From Chloroflexia bacterium (GTDB lineage Bacteria > Chloroflexota > Chloroflexia > DTKN01), in NCBI GenBank assembly GCA_034433695.1, contig DAOUAK010000160.1, positions 1 to 63,929 on the forward strand: a stretch of DNA of 63,929 nucleotides, read 5' to 3'. Shown here one piece after another: positions 2,080 to 45,477 of this stretch. The position numbers and the translations under genes are program-made. Numbering within the stretch: position 1 is the first letter of the stretch; each line of letters opens with the position of its first letter. The notes beneath the pieces are model-generated. The model saw only the letters and a list, made by a program, of their open reading frames with translations. It searched no databases and was not told the DNA's origin.

Positions 2080-3546
2080 ATGGAGCCGACACCGCTTCGA
2101 CAACTGCAGGAACTTTTAAACGAACTTGCCGCTGCCCAGGCCCGCTGGAAAAGCCTTCTGGAAGAAGGGGAGGACGCCCGCCGACGCCGGCCTTCCGCAG
2201 ACTTCCTGAACGAACTTCGCCGGGCCAGTGAGTTTGTCTCCCAACTGCTCCCGCTCCTGCAATCGCTTCGACAGGAATTCTCCCTCGTCCAGCGAGAACG
2301 GGAACACCTAGTCACCCTCTTTGAAATCAGCCAACTGGTCAACTCGACCCTGAAACTGGAGGACCTGCTCGAGATCGTCATAGACCGGGCCATTGCCGTA
2401 ACCGGTGCAGAGCGAGGTTTCCTTATGCTGCGGGACATGGCCAGCGGCCAACTCCATTTTGCCGTGGCCCGAAACATGCGCCAGCAAGATATCGAGGAAT
2501 CGGCCTTCCAGGTGAGCCGCAGCATTGTCAATCGGGTGGCCGAGACGGCCGAACCGATCCTCACCGACAACGCCAGCCAGGATCCCCGTTTTGCCGATAG
2601 TGTCAGTATCGCCACCTACGTTCTACGCTCTATCCTCTGCGTGCCCTTGCAGGTAAAGAACCACACCATCGGTGTGCTCTATGTGGATAACCGGGTGCGC
2701 ATCGGCCATTTTACTCCCGAGGACCTCAGCCTGCTCACCGCCTTCGCCAACCAGGCCGCCGTAGCCATCGAAAACGCCCGGCTCTTCGAACACGTCTGCG
2801 TCCTGGACCGACTCAAGGGCGACTTCCTGGAGAGCGTCTCTCACGAATTGCGCTCGCCCCTGACTTCGCTGATCCTGGGCCTGGAACTGGTCCAGGCATC
2901 GCTCCAGGGGACGGACCTCGATCTGCTGGATACGGTGGTGGAAAGCGCCCGGCGGCTGGGCGACATCGTGGAGCGGCTGACCCGGTTCTCCGAAATCGAG
3001 CGTGAGGGGGCGGCCTGGATCGGCGCCGAGGGTAGCCAGACCATCCCGCTGCGGGAACTTCTGGGAGAAGCCTTAGAGCCGCACCGGGCTGAGGCCGAGA
3101 AGAAAGGGTTGATGATGAACCTGGTCATCGAGGGAGAGATGGTTTCCCTGCCGGTGCCGCGGGGGCTTTTACGGGCGCTGCACGAACTTTTGACCAACGC
3201 GGTGTCCTATACCGAGAAGGGGGTCATCTTTGTTACCGCCCGGCGTGCCGGCCAGGAGATGCTCATCAGCGTGGCCGATACCGGGATCGGTGTGCCCTCA
3301 GATGAGATGCCCTATATCTTCGATAAACTCTTCCGCGGCCGTAAGGTACGTGCTCTGGCCCGGACGCAGGGGTTAGGACTGGGGCTGGCCGTGGCGCGCT
3401 GGGTGGTAGAGACTTTGGGCGGATCTATCTGGGCCGAAAGCATGGAAGGCAAGGGCAGCGTCTTCACCATCTCTCTGCCGCTGGAGGAAACGAAACAGGG
3501 CTGGCAGGTCAAGGCGGTCACTGGAGTGGGAGACGCTCCCCGGTAA
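2080..3546 (+). CDS. GAF-domain sensor histidine kinase
   Basis: ATG at 2080, 20 nt after the GlpK-like stop. GAF-like segment (AERGFLML...ILCVPL), H-box SHELRSPLTS, N box LLTNAVSYT, and G boxes DTGIGV and GLGLGLAV. Confidence 0.85.
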   Translation: MEPTPLRQLQELLNELAAAQARWKSLLEEGEDARRRRPSADFLNELRRASEFVSQLLPLLQSLRQEFSLVQREREHLVTLFEISQLVNSTLKLEDLLEIVIDRAIAVTGAERGFLMLRDMASGQLHFAVARNMRQQDIEESAFQVSRSIVNRVAETAEPILTDNASQDPRFADSVSIATYVLRSILCVPLQVKNHTIGVLYVDNRVRIGHFTPEDLSLLTAFANQAAVAIENARLFEHVCVLDRLKGDFLESVSHELRSPLTSLILGLELVQASLQGTDLDLLDTVVESARRLGDIVERLTRFSEIEREGAAWIGAEGSQTIPLRELLGEALEPHRAEAEKKGLMMNLVIEGEMVSLPVPRGLLRALHELLTNAVSYTEKGVIFVTARRAGQEMLISVADTGIGVPSDEMPYIFDKLFRGRKVRALARTQGLGLGLAVARWVVETLGGSIWAESMEGKGSVFTISLPLEETKQGWQVKAVTGVGDAPR

Positions 3547-20307: not shown

Positions 20308-20380
20308 GCGGGAGTAACTCAGTTGGTAGAGTTCCTGCTTCCCAAGCAGGCTGTCGCGGGTTCGAGTCCCGTCTCCCGCT
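20308..20380 (+). tRNA. tRNA-Gly (anticodon CCC)
   Basis: Cloverleaf folded by hand: acceptor GCGGGAG/CTCCCGC, D arm ACTC-AGTTGGTA-GAGT, anticodon stem CCTGC/GCAGG with loop TTCCCAA, T arm GCGGG-TTCGAGT-CCCGT. No encoded CCA. Confidence 0.95.
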
Positions 20381-30350: not shown

Positions 30351-32390
30351 GTGATACTCTGCCCAAACTGCCGTGCACCCAATCCGGACTCTTTCCGGTT
30401 CTGCGGGCGCTGTGGTAAACCGTTGCGCGAAGAAAAGGCCGAAGAACTCCCCAAGGGCGAACCGGTCCCTTCCTGGCTTCGGGAACTGGGCCAGGGGCTG
30501 GAAGCCGGTCCGGAGCCGGCCCCGCGACGGGAAAAAGCCCCAGAGGAGGAGGCGGGTCTTCCGCCGTGGCTGGCGGAGGCGCCGGCCGAGGCCCCGGCGG
30601 AGGAGGCGGGTCTTCCGCCCTGGCTGGCGGAGGCGCCGGCCGAGGCTGCGGTGGAGGAGGCGGGTCTTCCGCCCTGGCTGGCGGAGGTGCCGGCCGGAGC
30701 CCCGGTAGGGGAAGTGCCGGCCGAGGAAGCAGCCGGCCTGGTAGGTGAAGAGGAACTGGAACTGCCGCCATGGCTGGCGGAGGCCGTTCCCGAGGCCCCG
30801 GTGGAGGAGACGCCGGCCGGAGTCCCTGTGGCGGAGGTGCCGGTTGAGGAGGAACTTCCTCCGTGGCTGGCGGAGGAGGCGGCCGAGGCCCCGGTGGAGG
30901 AGATGCCGGCCGGAGTCCCTGTGGCGGAGGTGCCGGTTGAGGAGGAACTTCCGTGGCTGGCGGGGGCGCCGGCCGAGGCCGAGGCTGTGGAGGCCCCTGT
31001 AGAGGCGATACCGGAGGAGGAACTTTATGCCCTGCCGGTAACTCCGGAGGAAGAGGCGGCGCTCCCGGAGTGGGCCCGAGCGCTCAAGCCGGTGGAAGAA
31101 GAGGCGGCTTCGACGCCGTTTCTGGAAGGGGTGGAGTTGCCCGAGTGGCTACGGGTGGAGGAGCGACCGGCTGAAGAAGCCGTCGAAGTTCCGGCACCGG
31201 AACTGGCCTGGCTGGAACGGCTGGCCGGCGAAGAGGAGGAAGAGGTTCCCACGCTCGCCGCCGTCGAGCGCCTGCCGCGGCCACCTTTGCCTCCGCCGTC
31301 CCTGGCCCGCCGGCAGGCGGCAGAACTTTTTGCCGCTCTGGTGGCCACCCCGGAGCCGGAGAGGCGGCCGTTGGAGAGACGGGCCCCTTCCTTCTCCCGA
31401 CGACTGCTCCACTGGCTGGCGGAGCGCTGGCCCATGCTGGCCCTGGCACTCCTGATGATCGTGATGCTTGCGGCCAACGTCTCTCTGCCCGGTGTACGTG
31501 CGGCAGTTTCGGAGGCCGATCAGGCCTTTGCTACGGTGGAGCAGGCCATCGCCTGGTCCCCGGAGGCCGGGGAGAATCCCCGGCCGGCACTGGTAGCTTT
31601 CGACTGGGATCTCCACCGGGTGGCAGAGATGCGGCCGTTGGCGCTGGTCGTGATTCGCCATCTTCTGAAGTGGAAGTCGCCCGTGATCGCGGTCAGCACG
31701 ACTTTCCAGGGAAGCCAGTTAGCACAAGAGGTGCTGGAGACCGCGCTCCTGGAAGTTTTGTCCAGGGGAAATCTCGGGGAACCGGGAACCGGGCAAGTTT
31801 TCCAGGCCGTCGAACAACTGGTAGCCCAGGGCTATGGGGAATTTCGGGACTATACCTACGGCGACCACTTTGTCAACCTGGGGCTACGCACCGGGGCGGA
31901 GAGCGCCCTCCGCCTGCTGGCCGACCAGCCGCTGGCCTGGACCTTCCCGCGGGACTTTTTCCGAGGTCTCCCTTCGGCCGATTACCCTCTGCTTCAGCAG
32001 GTTCCATCGCTGAAGGACGTTTCTCTTCTGGTGGTCATGGTGGGGGAGGAGGACCGTGCCCTGGGCTGGTTGGAGCAGGTGATCAGCCGGTATCCGAACA
32101 AACCCTGTCTGCTGGTCATTCCGACCGAACTGGGGCCGCTGGTACAGCCGTACCGTCAGGCCTGGGCCGGAGCACCTGCCCTCCTGCGGGGGGTGGCCGC
32201 CGCTGCCCGGTACGAGGCTTTGCTCCGGGAGCGGGAACTGGTTTCCCTGAGCCCGGAACTTTCGGTGGAACGGCGCCTGAGCCTGCTTACGGTAGCCCAA
32301 TTCGGGCTGGTCATCCTGATCCTGGCAGGAAATCTGGCCCATCTGGGCCGATGGCTGGGTCGCCTGCGGAAAGGGCCGCCCCAGGTATAG
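30351..32390 (+). CDS. zinc-ribbon protein with acidic LPxWL repeat array, TM segment and large C-terminal domain (operon gene 4)
   Basis: GTG at 30351 with GGGAGG upstream. CPNCRAPNP...FCGRCG zinc ribbon, about 9-10 copies of (L/V)P(P/E/S)WL(A/R)E, TM WPMLALALLMIVMLAANV, and terminal TM LLTVAQFGLVILILAGNLA. Confidence 0.75.
   Translation: MILCPNCRAPNPDSFRFCGRCGKPLREEKAEELPKGEPVPSWLRELGQGLEAGPEPAPRREKAPEEEAGLPPWLAEAPAEAPAEEAGLPPWLAEAPAEAAVEEAGLPPWLAEVPAGAPVGEVPAEEAAGLVGEEELELPPWLAEAVPEAPVEETPAGVPVAEVPVEEELPPWLAEEAAEAPVEEMPAGVPVAEVPVEEELPWLAGAPAEAEAVEAPVEAIPEEELYALPVTPEEEAALPEWARALKPVEEEAASTPFLEGVELPEWLRVEERPAEEAVEVPAPELAWLERLAGEEEEEVPTLAAVERLPRPPLPPPSLARRQAAELFAALVATPEPERRPLERRAPSFSRRLLHWLAERWPMLALALLMIVMLAANVSLPGVRAAVSEADQAFATVEQAIAWSPEAGENPRPALVAFDWDLHRVAEMRPLALVVIRHLLKWKSPVIAVSTTFQGSQLAQEVLETALLEVLSRGNLGEPGTGQVFQAVEQLVAQGYGEFRDYTYGDHFVNLGLRTGAESALRLLADQPLAWTFPRDFFRGLPSADYPLLQQVPSLKDVSLLVVMVGEEDRALGWLEQVISRYPNKPCLLVIPTELGPLVQPYRQAWAGAPALLRGVAAAARYEALLRERELVSLSPELSVERRLSLLTVAQFGLVILILAGNLAHLGRWLGRLRKGPPQV
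30545..30706 (+). repeat. three tandem 54-bp coding repeats (EEAGLPPWLAEAPAEAPA units)
   Basis: GGAGGAGGC unit starts at 30545, 30599 and 30653 (period exactly 54 nt). The copies are near-identical. Confidence 0.9.
30792..30974 (+). repeat. two tandem ~93/90-bp coding repeats (EAPVEE(T/M)PAGVPVAEVPVEEELP(P)WLAE units)
   Basis: GAGGCCCCGGTGGAGGAGA starts at 30792 and 30885. The second copy lacks 3 nt. Confidence 0.9.
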
Positions 32391-41496: not shown

Positions 41497-43089
41497 ATGC
41501 GACGCTGGAACGGCTGGGGCGACGATACGGTGACCTACCCGCTGCCCGATGGGGCCGTCCGCTTCCTGCTCGAGCGTCTGGGGCCGGCTTCGCCGCCCCG
41601 GGATGCGGAACTGGCTACCGTGTTGGCCTCCGTTCCGCCCTCCCAACTCCCTCCGCACCCGCTTATCTCCACCGATCCCTTCCAGCGTCTCCGCCACGCC
41701 CGCGGCCAGAGCCTGCCCGACTGGATCGCCCTGCGGAGCGGACGCCTGGAGGCCTTTCCCGATGGGGTGGCCTGCCCCGAGACGGCCGCCGAGGTGCGCG
41801 ATGTGCTGCGCTATGCCGCCGAGGTGGGCGCGTGCGTTATCCCTTACGGGGGAGGGACCAGTGTGGTGGGACATATCAATCCCCTGCCCGGCGTCCCGAC
41901 GGTCACGGTGGACATGGGGCGGATGAACCGTCTCCTTCGCTTCGACGAGCGTAGCCATCTGGCTACCTTCGAGGCCGGAGTTTGCGGGCCGGACCTGGAG
42001 GCGGCCCTGCGGGCACGGGGCTACACTCTGGGGCATTTTCCCCAATCGTTCGAGTATTCCACTCTGGGCGGCTGGATTGCCACCCGTTCCAGTGGGCAGC
42101 AGTCGCTTTTCTATGGGCGCATCGAGCGCCTCTTTGCCGGGGGAAAACTGGAGGCGCCGGCCGGCACCCTGGTCCTTCCGCCTTTCCCGGCCTCGGCGGC
42201 CGGCCCCGACCTCCGCGAAGTCGTCCTGGGATCGGAAGGCCGGTTGGGCATCCTTACCGAGGCCACGGTGCGGGTGATGCCCCTCCCGGAGGGCGAGGAA
42301 TTCCCCACCGTCTTCTTCCCTTCCTTCGAGCAGGGGCTGGAAGCCGTCCGGCAGATCGTCCAGGCCCGGTTGCCTCTCTCGATGCTCCGCCTCAGCACTG
42401 CGGCCGAGACGGAGACCACCCTGGCCCTGGCCGGCCACGAGCGCCTCATCGCTGCCCTGGAACGTCTGCTGGCCCTCCGTGGGGTGGGAGCGGGCAAATG
42501 TATGCTGATCTGCGGCCTTAGCGGCAAGGAGGCGCTGGTACGCACAGTCCGCCATGAGGCACTGGAAATCGCCCGGCGCCACGGGGGTGTCGGCGTGGGG
42601 CGCATCTTCGGCCGGCAGTGGTACAAAAGCCGCTTCCGCACCCCCTACCTGCGGAATACCCTCTGGGAGATGGGGTACGCCGTGGACACGCTGGAGACGG
42701 CCTGCGATTGGACGACCCTTCCCACCCTGCTCCGGGCCGTCGAGGAGGCGCTGCACCGGGCGATGGAAAAGTACGGCGAACGGGTACACGTCTTCAGCCA
42801 CCTTTCCCACCTCTACCCTTCCGGCTCCAGCATCTATACCACGTATATCTTTCGTCTGGCCTCCGATCCGGAGGAAACCCTCCATCGCTGGCAGGAGATG
42901 AAGGAAGCGGCCTGCCGGGCCATCGTGGCCCACAGAGGGACGATCAGCCACCAGCATGGCGTCGGGCTGGACCATCGGCCCTACCTGGCGGCCGAGAAGG
43001 GGGAGTTGGGGATGAAGGTGCTGCGCGAGGTGTGCCGGGTGCTGGACCCGGGAGGGGTGATGAATCCGGGGAAGATGGTAGGTGCGTGA
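41497..43089 (+). CDS. FAD-linked oxidase, alkyl-dihydroxyacetonephosphate-synthase-like (AGPS/GlcD superfamily)
   Basis: ATG at 41497 (MRRWNGWGDD..., a typical N-terminus of bacterial AGPS-like flavoproteins). FAD-binding PCMH region VIPYGGGTSVVGH. C-terminal DPGGVMNPGKM. The stop codon lies inside the heptamer array. Confidence 0.85.
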   Translation: MRRWNGWGDDTVTYPLPDGAVRFLLERLGPASPPRDAELATVLASVPPSQLPPHPLISTDPFQRLRHARGQSLPDWIALRSGRLEAFPDGVACPETAAEVRDVLRYAAEVGACVIPYGGGTSVVGHINPLPGVPTVTVDMGRMNRLLRFDERSHLATFEAGVCGPDLEAALRARGYTLGHFPQSFEYSTLGGWIATRSSGQQSLFYGRIERLFAGGKLEAPAGTLVLPPFPASAAGPDLREVVLGSEGRLGILTEATVRVMPLPEGEEFPTVFFPSFEQGLEAVRQIVQARLPLSMLRLSTAAETETTLALAGHERLIAALERLLALRGVGAGKCMLICGLSGKEALVRTVRHEALEIARRHGGVGVGRIFGRQWYKSRFRTPYLRNTLWEMGYAVDTLETACDWTTLPTLLRAVEEALHRAMEKYGERVHVFSHLSHLYPSGSSIYTTYIFRLASDPEETLHRWQEMKEAACRAIVAHRGTISHQHGVGLDHRPYLAAEKGELGMKVLREVCRVLDPGGVMNPGKMVGA

Positions 43090-43115
43090 TGCGTGGTGCG
43101 TGATGCGTGGTGCGT
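43081..43115 (+). repeat. tandem heptamer array, 5 x (G/A)(G/A)TGCGT
   Basis: GGTGCGT GATGCGT GGTGCGT GATGCGT GGTGCGT. This is the inverted complement (6 of 7 nt per unit) of the downstream CACGCAA array. Confidence 0.9.
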
Positions 43116-43129
43116 GTGAGGAGGAAAAA

Positions 43130-43570
43130 ATGGACTTCCAGGAGTGGCAGGCTTTGGTTCCAGGGGAGATTACCCGGGATGCCCTCTGGCGGATGGAAGT
43201 GTACCGTCTGGCCCTTTTTGCCGGGGAACTGGCCTGGCAGGATGTGGGTGAATTGGTGGAGGACAGGAGGACGATTAGCCTGTCGGATCAACTCTATCGG
43301 GCCGTCTGTTCTATTGGGGCCAATATTGCTGAAGGATACAGCCGGGGGTCAGGGAGAGATCAGGCTCGGTTCTACGAATACGCTCTTGGTTCTGCCCGCG
43401 AGGCACGTGGATGGTACTATCATGGCCGGCACGTTCTCCACGAGGATGTGGTACGCCACCGTATCGATCTTTTGACCCGGATTATTCGTTCGCTGTTGGC
43501 CATTATTCCCACCCAGCGGGGAGTCCGGATAAGAGAAGCAGAAGCCCATTATGACGTAAATAACACGTAA
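43130..43570 (+). CDS. four-helix-bundle protein (23S rRNA intervening-sequence protein family, TIGR02436-like)
   Basis: ATG at 43130 with GAGGAGG upstream. LSDQLYRAVCSIGANIAEGYSRGSGRDQARFYEYALGSAREARGWYY is the family signature. Confidence 0.85.
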   Translation: MDFQEWQALVPGEITRDALWRMEVYRLALFAGELAWQDVGELVEDRRTISLSDQLYRAVCSIGANIAEGYSRGSGRDQARFYEYALGSAREARGWYYHGRHVLHEDVVRHRIDLLTRIIRSLLAIIPTQRGVRIREAEAHYDVNNT

Positions 43571-43633
43571 CACGCAACACGCAACACGCAACACGCAACA
43601 CGCAACACGAAACACGAAACACGAAACACGAAA
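43564..43633 (+). repeat. tandem heptamer array, 10 x CACG(C/A/T)AA
   Basis: CACGTAA, 5 x CACGCAA, 4 x CACGAAA. It begins within the last codons of the four-helix gene, and its final A is the A of the glpD ATG. Confidence 0.95.
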
Positions 43634-45477
43634 TGTGGCACTCGAACTGGCGTGAAATCGTCTGGTCCAGACTATCCGGCCCCTGGGACGTCCTGGTGAT
43701 CGGCGGGGGCATCACCGGGGCCGGAATCTTTCGTGAGGCCGTCCGGCTGGGGTTACGTGCCCTCCTGGTGGAACAGCGCGACTTTGCCTGGGGGACGTCC
43801 AGCCGCTCTTCCAAGATGGTGCACGGCGGATTCCGATACCTCAAGGATGGGCATGTCCGGCTGACCTGGGCTTCGGTGCGCGAGCGGCAGCGCCTCCTGG
43901 CGGAAGGCGCCGGCCTGATCGAGCCGATGGGTTTCCTGATCGCCACCTATCGGGGCGACCGCCCCGGCCGCTGGGCTTACCGCGCCGGCCTCTCCATCTA
44001 CGACCTTCTGGCGCTCCAGTGGAGCCACCGCTACTACAGTGCCGAGGACTTTCAATTCCTGGCCCCTCACCTCTCCATCGAGGGCCTCCAGGGGGGCTAC
44101 CGCTACGGCGACGCCCAGACCGACGATGCCCGCCTGGTCCTGCGCGTCCTGCGCGAGGCGGCATCCGCCGGCGGCATGGCGTTGAACTATGCCCGGGCGG
44201 AATCGCTTCTCCTGGGCGAGGAGGGGACGCCTTCTTCCGGCCAGGTGGTGGGGGTGCGGTTGCGCGATACCCTGAGCGGACGCACCGCCGAGGTGCGGGC
44301 GCGGGCGGTCATCAACGCCACCGGTGCCTGGGCCGACCGGCTGCGGGCCGAACTCGGCCGGCCGCCCCGCATCCGCCCCCTGCGCGGCAGCCACCTCATC
44401 TTTCCCGGGTGGCGGCTGCCGGCCGCCCAGGCCCTCACCTTCCTCCACCCCCTCGACCGCCGGCCGGTCTTTATCTTCCCCTGGGAAGGCATCGCCCTGG
44501 TGGGGACGACCGACCTGGACCACGACCGCCCGCTGGACGAGGAGCCGGCCATCAGCCCCGAGGAGGTGGCTTACCTGATGGCCGGCGTGGAGGCCCAATG
44601 CCCCCGCCTGAACCTCTCCCTGGAGGACGTCCTTTCTACCTTCTCCGGTGTTCGCCCCGTCATCGGCACCGGGCGAAGCGATCCTTCCCGCGAACCCCGT
44701 GACCACGTCGTCTGGGAGGAAAACGGCCTCCTCACCGTGACCGGCGGAAAACTCACCACCTTCCGCCTCATCGCCCGCGATGCCCTCCGGGCCATCCGCA
44801 GCCGTTTTCCCGCCTTGCCCCCTTTCGACGAGCCATCCCCGGTGTTGGACCCGGTGGATGAGACCCTGGAGGGGTCCGGCCTGGATGCCCGGACCTGTCG
44901 GCGCCTCCTGGGCCGCTACGGAGCCGAGGCCCCCGCTCTCCTGGCGGCGGCCGGAGATGGGGAACTGGAGACGATCCCCGGCACCGACTTCCTCTGGGCG
45001 GAGATACGCTGGGCCGCCCGGGCCGAAGGAGTGGTACACCTGGACGACCTCCTCCTGCGCCGCGTGCGGGTGGGATTGCTCCTTCCTCGGGGAGGGGAAG
45101 CGCTTCTTCCCCGGGTACGGGCTATCTGTCAGGAAGAACTCGGTTGGAGCGATGCCCGCTGGGAGGAGGAAGAAGCCGCCTACCGCGCCCTCTGGCAGGC
45201 CTGTTACAGCCTTCCGGAGCGGTCGGCCATCCCGGACTGGCGGGATCGGGCGTTTCGGATGGTCTGGGAGAAACCCCGACCCTCCCCTCCGCAGCCGCCT
45301 CTCCCTCGCCGGCCCTCCTTGCGGGCCTGGACGGCCCGGATTCGCTCGCCCTTCCGCTCCGGCCTCTCCCGGGCCCTGAAGCGACTGAATCGGCGAACGA
45401 TGGCCCGCCTCTGGGAGCGTTTCCGTCGAGGCTCCCAGGGAGCGGGCCAACCCGGCGGAAAGGAAAGATCCCCATGA
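43633..45477 (+). CDS. glpD: FAD-dependent glycerol-3-phosphate dehydrogenase
   Basis: [18 protein letters not shown] dinucleotide fold, [15 protein letters not shown], and a GlpD C-terminal domain. Has an unusually long basic, Pro-rich tail. Confidence 0.9.

Follow-up and report, generated by a model that had tools for sequence, protein, structure and literature searches.

Inverted arrays of tandem heptamers bracket a PF05635 four-helix-bundle gene at operon junctions in many bacterial phyla

Results

A gene between two arrays

We describe a small gene and the repeats that enclose it in DNA from a Chloroflexia bacterium (contig DAOUAK010000160.1 of assembly GCA_034433695.1, positions 1 to 63,929 of the forward strand; hereafter the window, meaning this whole stretch of 63,929 nucleotides [nt]). 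The gene encodes a four-helix-bundle (4HB) protein of the PF05635 family and lies in a neighborhood made up of ispE, an oxidase gene, glpD, and an FGGY kinase gene, at the junction between the oxidase gene and glpD. On either side of it stands an array of tandem heptamers, and the two arrays are inverted relative to one another (Table 1). An initial annotation, made from the sequence alone, had reported five heptamers before and ten after an open reading frame (ORF) of 146 amino acids (aa), and the sequence confirms their positions. Upstream, GGTGCGT (first, third, and fifth units) alternates with GATGCGT at 43081-43115, and a G follows at 43116. Downstream come one CACGTAA (43564-43570), five CACGCAA (43571-43605), and four CACGAAA (43606-43633).

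Table 1. Coordinates of the element and of its two host genes in the window
Feature	Coordinates	Strand	Basis
Left (upstream) heptamer array, 5 units RRTGCGT (TGCGTGR register)	43081..43116	+	Sequence, TRF, pattern search
Shine-Dalgarno GGAGG of 4HB gene	43120..43124	+	5 nt before ATG
4HB protein gene, 146 aa, PF05635/TIGR02436	43130..43570	+	HMMs; ATG 43130, TAA 43568-43570
Right (downstream) heptamer array, 10 units CACGNAA, inverted complement of left	43564..43633	+	Sequence, TRF, RNAfold, pattern search
Upstream host gene, FAD-linked oxidase (FAD_binding_4 + FAD-oxidase_C)	41500..43089	+	Domain matches
Downstream host gene glpD (DAO + DAO_C)	43633..45477	+	Domain matches

Both arrays are shared with the coding sequences around them. 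The oxidase ORF ends in GTA GGT GCG TGA, with its last two sense codons and its stop (43087-43089) inside the left array, as the annotation had stated. The stop codon of the 4HB gene is part of the first unit of the right array, and the A of the glpD start codon (43633-43635) is the final base of the final heptamer. No motif resembling a Shine-Dalgarno (SD) sequence precedes this start codon in the sequence, which was likewise read correctly at the outset. The 4HB gene has an SD of its own, and its GGAGG is kept in L001 to L006 (L001 to L170 are the labels of the relative loci that were fetched).

According to Tandem Repeats Finder (TRF), these are the only two substantial period-7 arrays in the 64-kb window. 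The program describes the left array as 2.6 copies of a 14-mer (43081-43116, 100% matches) and the right array as 9.9 copies of a period of 7 (43562-43630, 96% matches). The two-unit pattern TGCGTGNTGCGTG, with at most one mismatch, matches the window 10 times, always within the two arrays and on opposite strands; 0.27 matches are expected in shuffled sequences, and 10 were reached in 0 of 100 shuffles. The suggestion that the arrays can pair and enclose the ORF is borne out by the RNAfold prediction for 43070-43640. Specifically, all five upstream units pair with downstream units through 6-bp helices interrupted by 1-by-1 mismatches, in the minimum free energy (MFE) and the centroid structures alike (z = -2.45). 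For the arrays by themselves, the duplex energy is -52.9 kcal/mol, and the four CACGAAA units ahead of glpD are predicted to be unpaired.

GC content drops by about 14 points over the cassette, to 55% versus 68 to 71% (43100-43700). The 4HB gene itself has a GC content of 55.6% and a third-position GC content (GC3) of 58.5%, compared with a GC3 of about 82% in the neighboring genes. A scan for sigma70-like promoters from 40.5 to 47.2 kb (ispE to the FGGY kinase gene) found none, and terminator-like matches inside the 4HB ORF were weak and no better than those in shuffles. There was no match to the PADLOC defense models, and Rfam, searched at E ≤ 1 on the cassette region and at the gathering threshold on the whole window, returned one tRNA only and no rRNA.

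The four-helix-bundle protein

The protein scores well above the cutoffs of the hidden Markov models (HMMs) PF05635 (56.8 bits; cutoff, 33.8) and TIGR02436 (65.2 bits; cutoff, 24), and its AlphaFold2 (AF2) model consists of four long helices in an up-down-up-down bundle (pLDDT, 89.9). Foldseek ranks 2RLD and 2GSC first (TMt of 0.89; both "S23 ribosomal protein family" structures), followed at 0.83 by 4DWL, the Avd protein of a diversity-generating retroelement (DGR), with which the window protein shares only about 10 to 12% sequence identity. The HMM and structure matches agree with the annotation's placement of the protein in a family first seen within intervening sequences (IVSs) of 23S rRNA. 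R57, S61, N65, and E68 are invariant in the alignment and make up the RxxxSxxxNxxE motif described for PF05635 (PMC3936711). The solved PF05635 relatives have five chains per structure entry. The ratio dN/dS of the 4HB gene is 0.16 to 0.22, similar to that of glpD, and by this measure the gene is evidently maintained by purifying selection. The family includes Avd (PMC10053308) and has been called functionally uncharacterized (bioRxiv 2024.02.27.582315); the wedging of its genes into cas operons has been mentioned in passing (PMC3936711).

Recurrence at operon junctions

Relatives of the protein are numerous (>5000 at E < 1e-5), the best 120 being 64 to 91% identical. The orthologous oxidase-4HB-glpD locus, with its arrays in every case, is found in relatives whose 4HB proteins are 91, 85, and 74% identical. 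In a metagenome-assembled genome (MAG) of the Anaerolineae (L010), the gene lies instead between two ABC permease genes, flanked by TGCGTGR and CACGCAA arrays like those in the window. A scan of one genome per species with the 4HB protein gave at least 545 loci. The best 80 of these, 56 to 74% identical, span Chloroflexota, Verrucomicrobiota, Poribacteria, Marinimicrobia, Binatia, Acidobacteria, Lentisphaeria, Latescibacterota, Armatimonadetes, and Pseudomonadota MAGs, with protein identity staying near 60% across at least 10 phyla. The loci are mostly MAG or metagenome contigs, and it was locus stretches, not whole genomes, that were compared.

For array statistics, we used 85 nonredundant loci from at least 10 phyla and a strict period-7 detector. 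An array was detected on at least one side of the 4HB gene in 73 of the 85 and on both sides in 30. Nearly all of the detector-negative loci hold short or degenerate arrays on inspection, for which reason a class of array-less loci was dropped. Array density is about 12-fold higher within 300 nt of the 4HB gene (160 arrays in 102 kb) than farther away (89 in 620 kb), and 79 of 82 loci have a 4HB gene that is richer in AT than the flanking DNA. One locus, L064, contains two copies in differing contexts, with 95% nucleotide identity between them. Further 4HB genes with like arrays occur at unrelated operon junctions, in many phyla and in distant subfamilies. Because the package of array, SD, 4HB gene, and inverted array recurs in this way, it is a discrete cassette and not a host gene with chance microsatellites. 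By these comparisons, gene and arrays are evidently a discrete, horizontally spread, promoterless cassette.

The position of the cassette within host operons is equally regular. In 60 of 77 loci, both neighbors are codirectional with the 4HB gene and lie tens of nucleotides from it; orientation was taken heuristically from the longest ORF, and start calls are heuristic as well. In 34 of 45 loci, the stop codon of the upstream gene is inside the array or precedes it by no more than 10 nt (median, -2 nt), and the median distance from the array end to the 4HB start is 18 nt. On the downstream side, an SD-like motif precedes the next gene in 14 of 42 loci and is missing in 28, and the array abuts the start codon in 7, glpD included. 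The cassette substitutes for the native stop/SD/start junction of a cotranscribed gene pair. The operons that host it differ by lineage (ABC permeases, accBC, araDA, and capsule export), and a 23S motif search placed 0 of about 170 loci in an rRNA gene.

In addition to these recurrences, the Poribacteria loci L053 and L090 (4001-4450) carry 4HB genes that are 96% identical at the nucleotide level between flanking proteins that are only about 77 to 79% identical. The contrast suggests that, at this orthologous site, the cassette was recently exchanged or converted between lineages.

Properties of the arrays

The heptamer unit varies between loci (TGCGTGR, TGCGTAT, GTGAAAC, AACGTAA, ACTGCGT, AGTGACG, and others), and the two arrays of a locus vary together. 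An upstream unit and the reverse complement of the downstream unit of the same locus are identical at 5.67 of 7 positions, compared with 4.74 ± 0.18 across loci (0 of 5000 permutations). The energy of the flank duplex is -68.3 kcal/mol within loci and -56.1 kcal/mol across them (p = 1.7e-7). Beneath this variation lies a fixed polarity. Of 71 upstream units, 58 contain CGT, and of 65 downstream units, 60 contain ACG; at random, about 11% would be expected. The unit consensus is CGT-R-W-W-R. Furthermore, loci with more similar proteins have more similar units (Mantel r = 0.27; 0 of 2000 permutations), and units cluster by clade.

Unit number changes far more readily than unit sequence. L002, L003, and L004 differ in their number of units although their 4HB genes and flanks are 100% identical, each variant having been recovered from two independent metagenomes; L169 and L170 likewise differ in unit number. 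The two L064 copies begin to resemble each other precisely at the final heptamer ahead of the SD; behind the upstream stop, a lone unit in one copy stands against a long array in the other. The arrays are thus shown, as far as such sequence comparisons reach, to be hypervariable microsatellites that appear to lengthen and shorten in place, starting from roughly a single terminal heptamer.

Stem stability is equal for the sense and antisense strands (14 versus 14; p = 0.78), and G-U pairs make up just 21 of 725. As a test for an RNA-specific stem, this strand asymmetry and G-U content support neither RNA nor DNA. With no RNA-strand signature, the complementarity may reflect protein-recognized inverted ends or DNA-level processes and not selection for an RNA duplex.

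Two other candidate roles for the unit were set aside. A stop-codon trap, in which heptamers provide a stop in every frame, is not general, as inspection finds no stop triplet in TGCGTAT or ACTGCGT, and the G-quadruplex (G4) reading of Rehm et al. is inapplicable to TGCGTGR/CACGCAA.

History at the oxidase-glpD junction

A metagenome scan using glpD gave 74 loci at which states of the oxidase-glpD junction could be compared. The empty state, a tight junction of 8 to 40 nt with an SD, is found in many lineages, and the filled state in the window, L001, L002, L007, L103, and L105, with units that differ by clade. Other loci are intermediate: L134, L107, and L110 are internally deleted remnants that keep both arrays, and L157 is a further remnant of this kind with a frameshift. 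The empty site sought in relatives that lack the cassette was found in L156, a close relative whose glpD and ispE are 86% and 94% identical to those of the window. Compared with L156, the oxidase of the window extends two codons farther at its 3' end, into the array. In a neighbor-joining tree of glpD (none of our trees carries support values), L156 falls within the filled clade with the remnant L107 as its sister, which points to near-precise loss of the cassette. At the cassette's own site in the window, the GC3 contrast persists although residence there looks long and vertical.

The initial annotation held that heptamers present in relatives without the ORF would speak for simple microsatellites and against a cassette. 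ORF-less arrays, with still other units, do occur at this junction (L126, L118, L121, L101, and L102), yet they do not refute the cassette, because the intermediate deletion remnants exist. Rather, the cassette is shown by this series to be capable, so far as can be reconstructed, of being lost nearly precisely or of decaying to ORF-less array hairpins.

Some individual junctions deserve description. The "empty" L156 (2978-3000) keeps gtggtgtgtg and L108 (2984-3000) keeps cacggagcacaacc, heptamer-like scraps between stop and SD that may be excision footprints. L126 (710-926) has about 13 units of GGTGAAC/GGTAATC followed by inverted ACCGAAT/ACCGATT, with no gene between them, and so presents a "solo hairpin" at the cassette site. 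L106 (about 2800-3000) has a long, near-perfect palindrome that is not heptameric (..caggctgcccctggtgcgcccgcgggcgcaccaggggcagcctg..), a different hairpin element at the same site. Between glpD and the FGGY kinase gene of L115 (5333-5788), eight successive arrays (ATGCGTA, CTCGTAA, GTAACTC, GTTACTC, and TTACGCA three times among them) occupy 450 nt with no ORF, a block that looks like a nested multihairpin.

Distant subfamilies and ORF-less arrays

The same architecture is found around distantly related 4HB genes. XCC0516 of Xanthomonas campestris (PDB 2GSC; L165/L166, 2424-2872) lies between accB and accC, flanked by four GGGAATC and four CCCATTC units; accB and accC form the essential acetyl-CoA carboxylase operon. 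In a MAG with a related gene (L168), GGGAATR and CCCCATT arrays abut both start codons. Cultured Vreelandella titanicae has eight GTGARNN and 14 GACTCAC units (GTGAGTC/GACTCAC) in a capsule-export operon. Genes of the BT_0352 type in Bacteroidaceae occupy araD-araA or aminotransferase-DAHP synthase junctions with AATTGAC/AATTGTC flanks, and unit number varies among near-identical loci. A second 4HB copy in L080, 40% identical, is flanked by GCGAATC/GATTCGC.

Heptamer arrays also exist apart from the gene. Among tandem repeats away from 4HB genes, a period of 7 is the commonest (80 arrays versus 21 with a period of 6). Adjacent inverted pairs have a bimodal spacing, with 25 at gaps below 100 nt (ORF-less hairpins) and about 56 at gaps of 350 to 700 nt that hold a 4HB gene. 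No other cargo gene was found between inverted arrays; the spacing gives either a hairpin or a 4HB gene. Of the dispersed arrays, 40% match the unit of the local 4HB gene, where 19 ± 5% would be expected (0 of 2000 permutations). The ORF-less inverted hairpins, which are abundant, make up a class of their own that is related to the cassette. Examples at other junctions are L014 (928-1039 and 3496-3603), L039 (1246-1421), L046 (1112-1240 and 5414-5473), L060 (2783-2867), L072 (3311-3417), and L089 (723-826), with units that include GGTTTCA, ATCCGAA, GTGACAA, AGGAGTC, and TAATGAG, along with others.

Discussion

Relation to known systems

Our study brings together things that have been described separately. 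X. campestris has 186 GGGAATC arrays genome-wide, 70 of them in convergent pairs and most of them transcribed, and these were read as G-quadruplex motifs (Rehm et al. 2015, PMC4692102). Array #15 of that study is the left array of XCC0516, a gene that appears there only as "conserved" (PMC4692102). TAACTGA repeats end just before start codons in intergenic regions poor in ribosome-binding sites (RBSs) (MacGregor 2015, PMC4679880). According to work cited in PMC4692102, many bacteria have an excess of heptameric simple sequence repeats (SSRs), for which polymerase slippage has been suggested as the origin. In the open full-text literature, with subscription-only papers outside the search, we found no paper that links PF05635 genes to flanking heptamer arrays. 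What is new here is that PF05635 genes are tightly coupled, across phyla, to inverted heptamer arrays placed at operon junctions.

The closest comparison is with the IVSs of 23S rRNA in Leptospira and Coxiella. The Coxiella IVS is 428 nt long, has a 28-bp terminal stem with an ORF in the loop, is cut by RNase III, and has a sporadic distribution that is explained horizontally (PMC4990558). Our cassette resembles such IVSs in length (about 430 to 550 nt), in its inverted ends with a predicted stem of about 30 bp, and in the PF05635 ORF in the loop, and it too is embedded in a host transcript and sporadically distributed (PMC4990558). It differs in lying at an mRNA stop/start junction, whereas IVSs lie in an rRNA helix (23S helix 9, 25, or 45), and in having variable-length tandem heptamer arrays as ends where IVSs have unique sequence. 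Purifying selection acts on its ORF, which is preceded by an SD of its own; the Coxiella S23p, by contrast, is decaying and not made (PMC4990558). Cleavage by RNase III has been demonstrated for IVSs, while the stem of the cassette is known from prediction. The initial annotation's picture of an IVS-like cassette at an mRNA junction therefore stands for the discrete cassette and for its size and layout, and falls short on location: no locus lies in an rRNA gene, and so the cassette lacks the position that defines an IVS.

Other mobile or repetitive elements share some of these properties. As with repetitive extragenic palindromic sequences and their associated tyrosine transposases (REP/RAYT; REPIN), a gene is flanked by an inverted short repeat; ORF-less hairpin pairs dispersed in transcribed intergenic regions share that repeat in part, and in X. 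campestris the unit beside XCC0516 is that of the genome-wide arrays. Unlike a RAYT, however, the cassette protein is a four-helix bundle and not an HUH/Y1 transposase, and the repeats are tandem heptamers, heterogeneous within a genome where dispersed, in place of palindromes of 20 to 40 bp. Like integron cassettes and MITEs, the unit is a promoterless single gene with imperfect inverted repeats, inserted in the sense direction behind upstream transcription, and it has short ORF-less derivatives; unlike them, it shows no evident integrase, attI/attC, cassette arrays, target-site duplication, or transposase-derived terminal inverted repeats.

The arrays themselves are heptamer SSRs of a known bacterial kind, alongside GGGAATC (Xanthomonas), GGGGAYT (Nostoc), TAACTGA (Beggiatoaceae, Cyanobacteria, and Bacteroidetes), and STRR (Calothrix), which are also variable period-7 arrays between operon genes. 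Those arrays often end at RBS-less start codons, occur in convergent pairs, and are transcribed (PMC4692102, PMC4679880). They were interpreted in terms of G-quadruplexes or translation, with no link to PF05635 (PMC4692102, PMC4679880); the TGCGTGR unit of the window cannot form a G4. Finally, the protein shares fold and Pfam family with the DGR protein Avd, a pentameric nucleic-acid-binding barrel in its solved structures. Here the differences are the low sequence identity given above, the lack of a reverse transcriptase (RT) among nearby called genes, and the operon-junction setting.

A putative recognition system and its rivals

Everything we say of mechanism beyond the architecture of the sequence, we infer. 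We lean, by a little, toward the reading that the heptamers are putative cognate sites of a 4HB oligomer, inverted like the ends of a transposon or the REPs that flank a RAYT, since such recognition would account for a unit that is conserved, polar, and clade specific. The 4HB gene would then be the autonomous partner of the ORF-less inverted hairpins found at other junctions. The cassette would be transcribed by read-through from the host operon, and in the read-through transcript the arrays may zip into an imperfect stem of about 35 bp that loops the cassette out. Looping out would juxtapose the oxidase stop and the glpD start. The stem is a possible substrate for RNase III, as in 23S rRNA IVSs, and the unpaired, CA-rich tail (CACGAAA four times) might act as an SD-less leader for glpD.

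A broader proposition, and a distinctly more doubtful one, is that PF05635 proteins are the trans-acting partners of bacterial heptamer arrays in general (GGGAATC, STRR/GGGGAYT, TAACTGA, and CGT-core units), each subfamily with its own unit, and that the ORF-less hairpins are their nonautonomous progeny, in a REP/RAYT-like arrangement with an Avd-like fold. If true, it would also explain the excess of period-7 SSRs and the origin of ORF-bearing rRNA IVSs.

An argument can be made against recognition and mobility on several grounds. PF05635 proteins are not known to have a biochemical activity outside DGR Avd, and binding of heptamers by the 4HB protein is for that reason purely inferential. 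Simple co-inheritance predicts the codivergence of unit and protein equally well. Dispersed ORF-less arrays fail to match the local 4HB unit in 60% of cases, only 52% of ORF-less arrays have the CGT/ACG core, and their units are far more diverse than those that flank 4HB genes; given this diversity and mismatch, many may be unrelated slippage products. Five of 30 loci seem to have direct arrays unless composite hairpins are considered (L035, L056, L067, L076, and L089); as exceptions these were rejected, each resolving into a cassette and an adjoining ORF-less hairpin. Most pairs of high identity are orthologous, so movement must be rare. No relatives of this 4HB subfamily were found on plasmids (tblastn, E ≤ 1e-8) or in IMG/VR, and thus no vector is known. 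Among called genes within 5 kb on either side in L001 to L010 there is no transposase, integrase, or RT, and no direct repeat indicative of a target-site duplication is evident between the window and L156 or between the two L064 copies. An enzyme that acts in trans is conceivable. In addition, the orientation counts depend on the longest-ORF heuristic, and the glpD tree on neighbor joining without support values.

The rival that fares best, which is in line with the initial annotation and which we regard as possible though rather doubtful, treats the cassette purely as an RNA-level analogue of an IVS: RNase III would cut the array stem, excise the 4HB mRNA, and separate the cistrons, with the RNA duplex as the object of selection. 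The stem predicted in both MFE and centroid structures, the better pairing of same-locus flanks than of cross-locus flanks, and the sense insertion inside operons all fit this reading. So do the like protein family and layout of the Coxiella IVS with its RNase III-cut stem of 28 bp (PMC4990558) and the transcription of Xanthomonas arrays (PMC4692102). However, the stems lack strand asymmetry and have few G-U pairs, and a stem alone leaves the cross-phylum CGT core and its tracking of clades unexplained. The arrays are, moreover, often very unequal in length or placed beside a local competing hairpin, and no locus is in rRNA.

Selection at the level of the host offers a different account, in which the arrays are posttranscriptional or translational control elements at operon junctions (a role already suggested for TAACTGA repeats), the 4HB protein is a beneficial regulator that binds them, and nothing is selfish or mobile. 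We consider it improbable. The frequent lack of an SD before the downstream gene (28 of 42 loci), the abutment of array and start codon in 7 loci including glpD, and the same geometry with few RBSs for TAACTGA (MacGregor 2015, PMC4679880) are in its favor, and so are purifying selection on the 4HB gene and long retention of the cassette at the oxidase-glpD site. Patchiness at a single junction, clean losses, and decayed remnants are harder to reconcile with that account, as is the use of unrelated operons in different lineages (ABC permeases, accBC, araDA, and capsule export). A GC trough together with about 60% similarity across phyla, and the duplicate copy of L064 in a new context, also speak against it.

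We find it very hard to credit that slippage microsatellites flank a small, horizontally acquired gene by chance, even though heptameric SSRs are reportedly overrepresented and attributed to slippage in work cited in PMC4692102, and a period of 7 dominates away from 4HB genes as well. Chance does not predict a roughly 12-fold density near 4HB genes, consistent inversion with covariation, a fixed polarity of CGT upstream and ACG downstream, or the recurrence of the pattern with other units in three distant subfamilies. Least credible of all is an orphan Avd gene left by a decayed DGR: the fold does match Avd (4DWL and 8UB7; TM of about 0.8) and PF05635 does include it (PMC10053308), but L001 to L010 have no RT among called genes within 5 kb on either side, the neighboring genes belong to housekeeping operons, the nearest structures (2RLD and 2GSC) are non-DGR members, and similar stand-alone copies number in the thousands.

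Significance

With the cassette, three things known separately can be viewed as one object: the PF05635 family, the ORF-bearing rRNA IVSs, and the excess of heptamer repeats in bacteria. In PF05635, stand-alone genes number in the tens of thousands; the family also includes Avd, the DGR cofactor, and is represented by two orphan crystal structures. The cassette enters essential or central operons (accBC, araDA, ABC transporters, and glycerol catabolism) without destroying them. Because it swaps a native junction for hypermutable repeats, heritable variation in operon expression could arise from it. The architecture exists in the tractable X. campestris (XCC0516), in Bacteroides (BT_0352 type), and in V. 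titanicae, so that the function of the family and of its arrays is directly testable.

Additional observations

In L010 (6567-10468), the ABC-transporter operon with the cassette is followed closely downstream by a PIN/PhdYeFM toxin-antitoxin pair and by an N6/N4 methyltransferase with a BglI/MwoI-like endonuclease. In the window, tRNA-Gly(CCC) at 20308-20380 is the sole Rfam/ARAGORN match. Apart from the heptamers, GC-rich tandem repeats of 54 nt (3.1 copies) and 93 nt (2.4 to 2.5 copies) lie at 30537-31020 (GCCCCGGAGGAGGAGGCGG...) and presumably encode a repetitive acidic/proline-rich protein segment.

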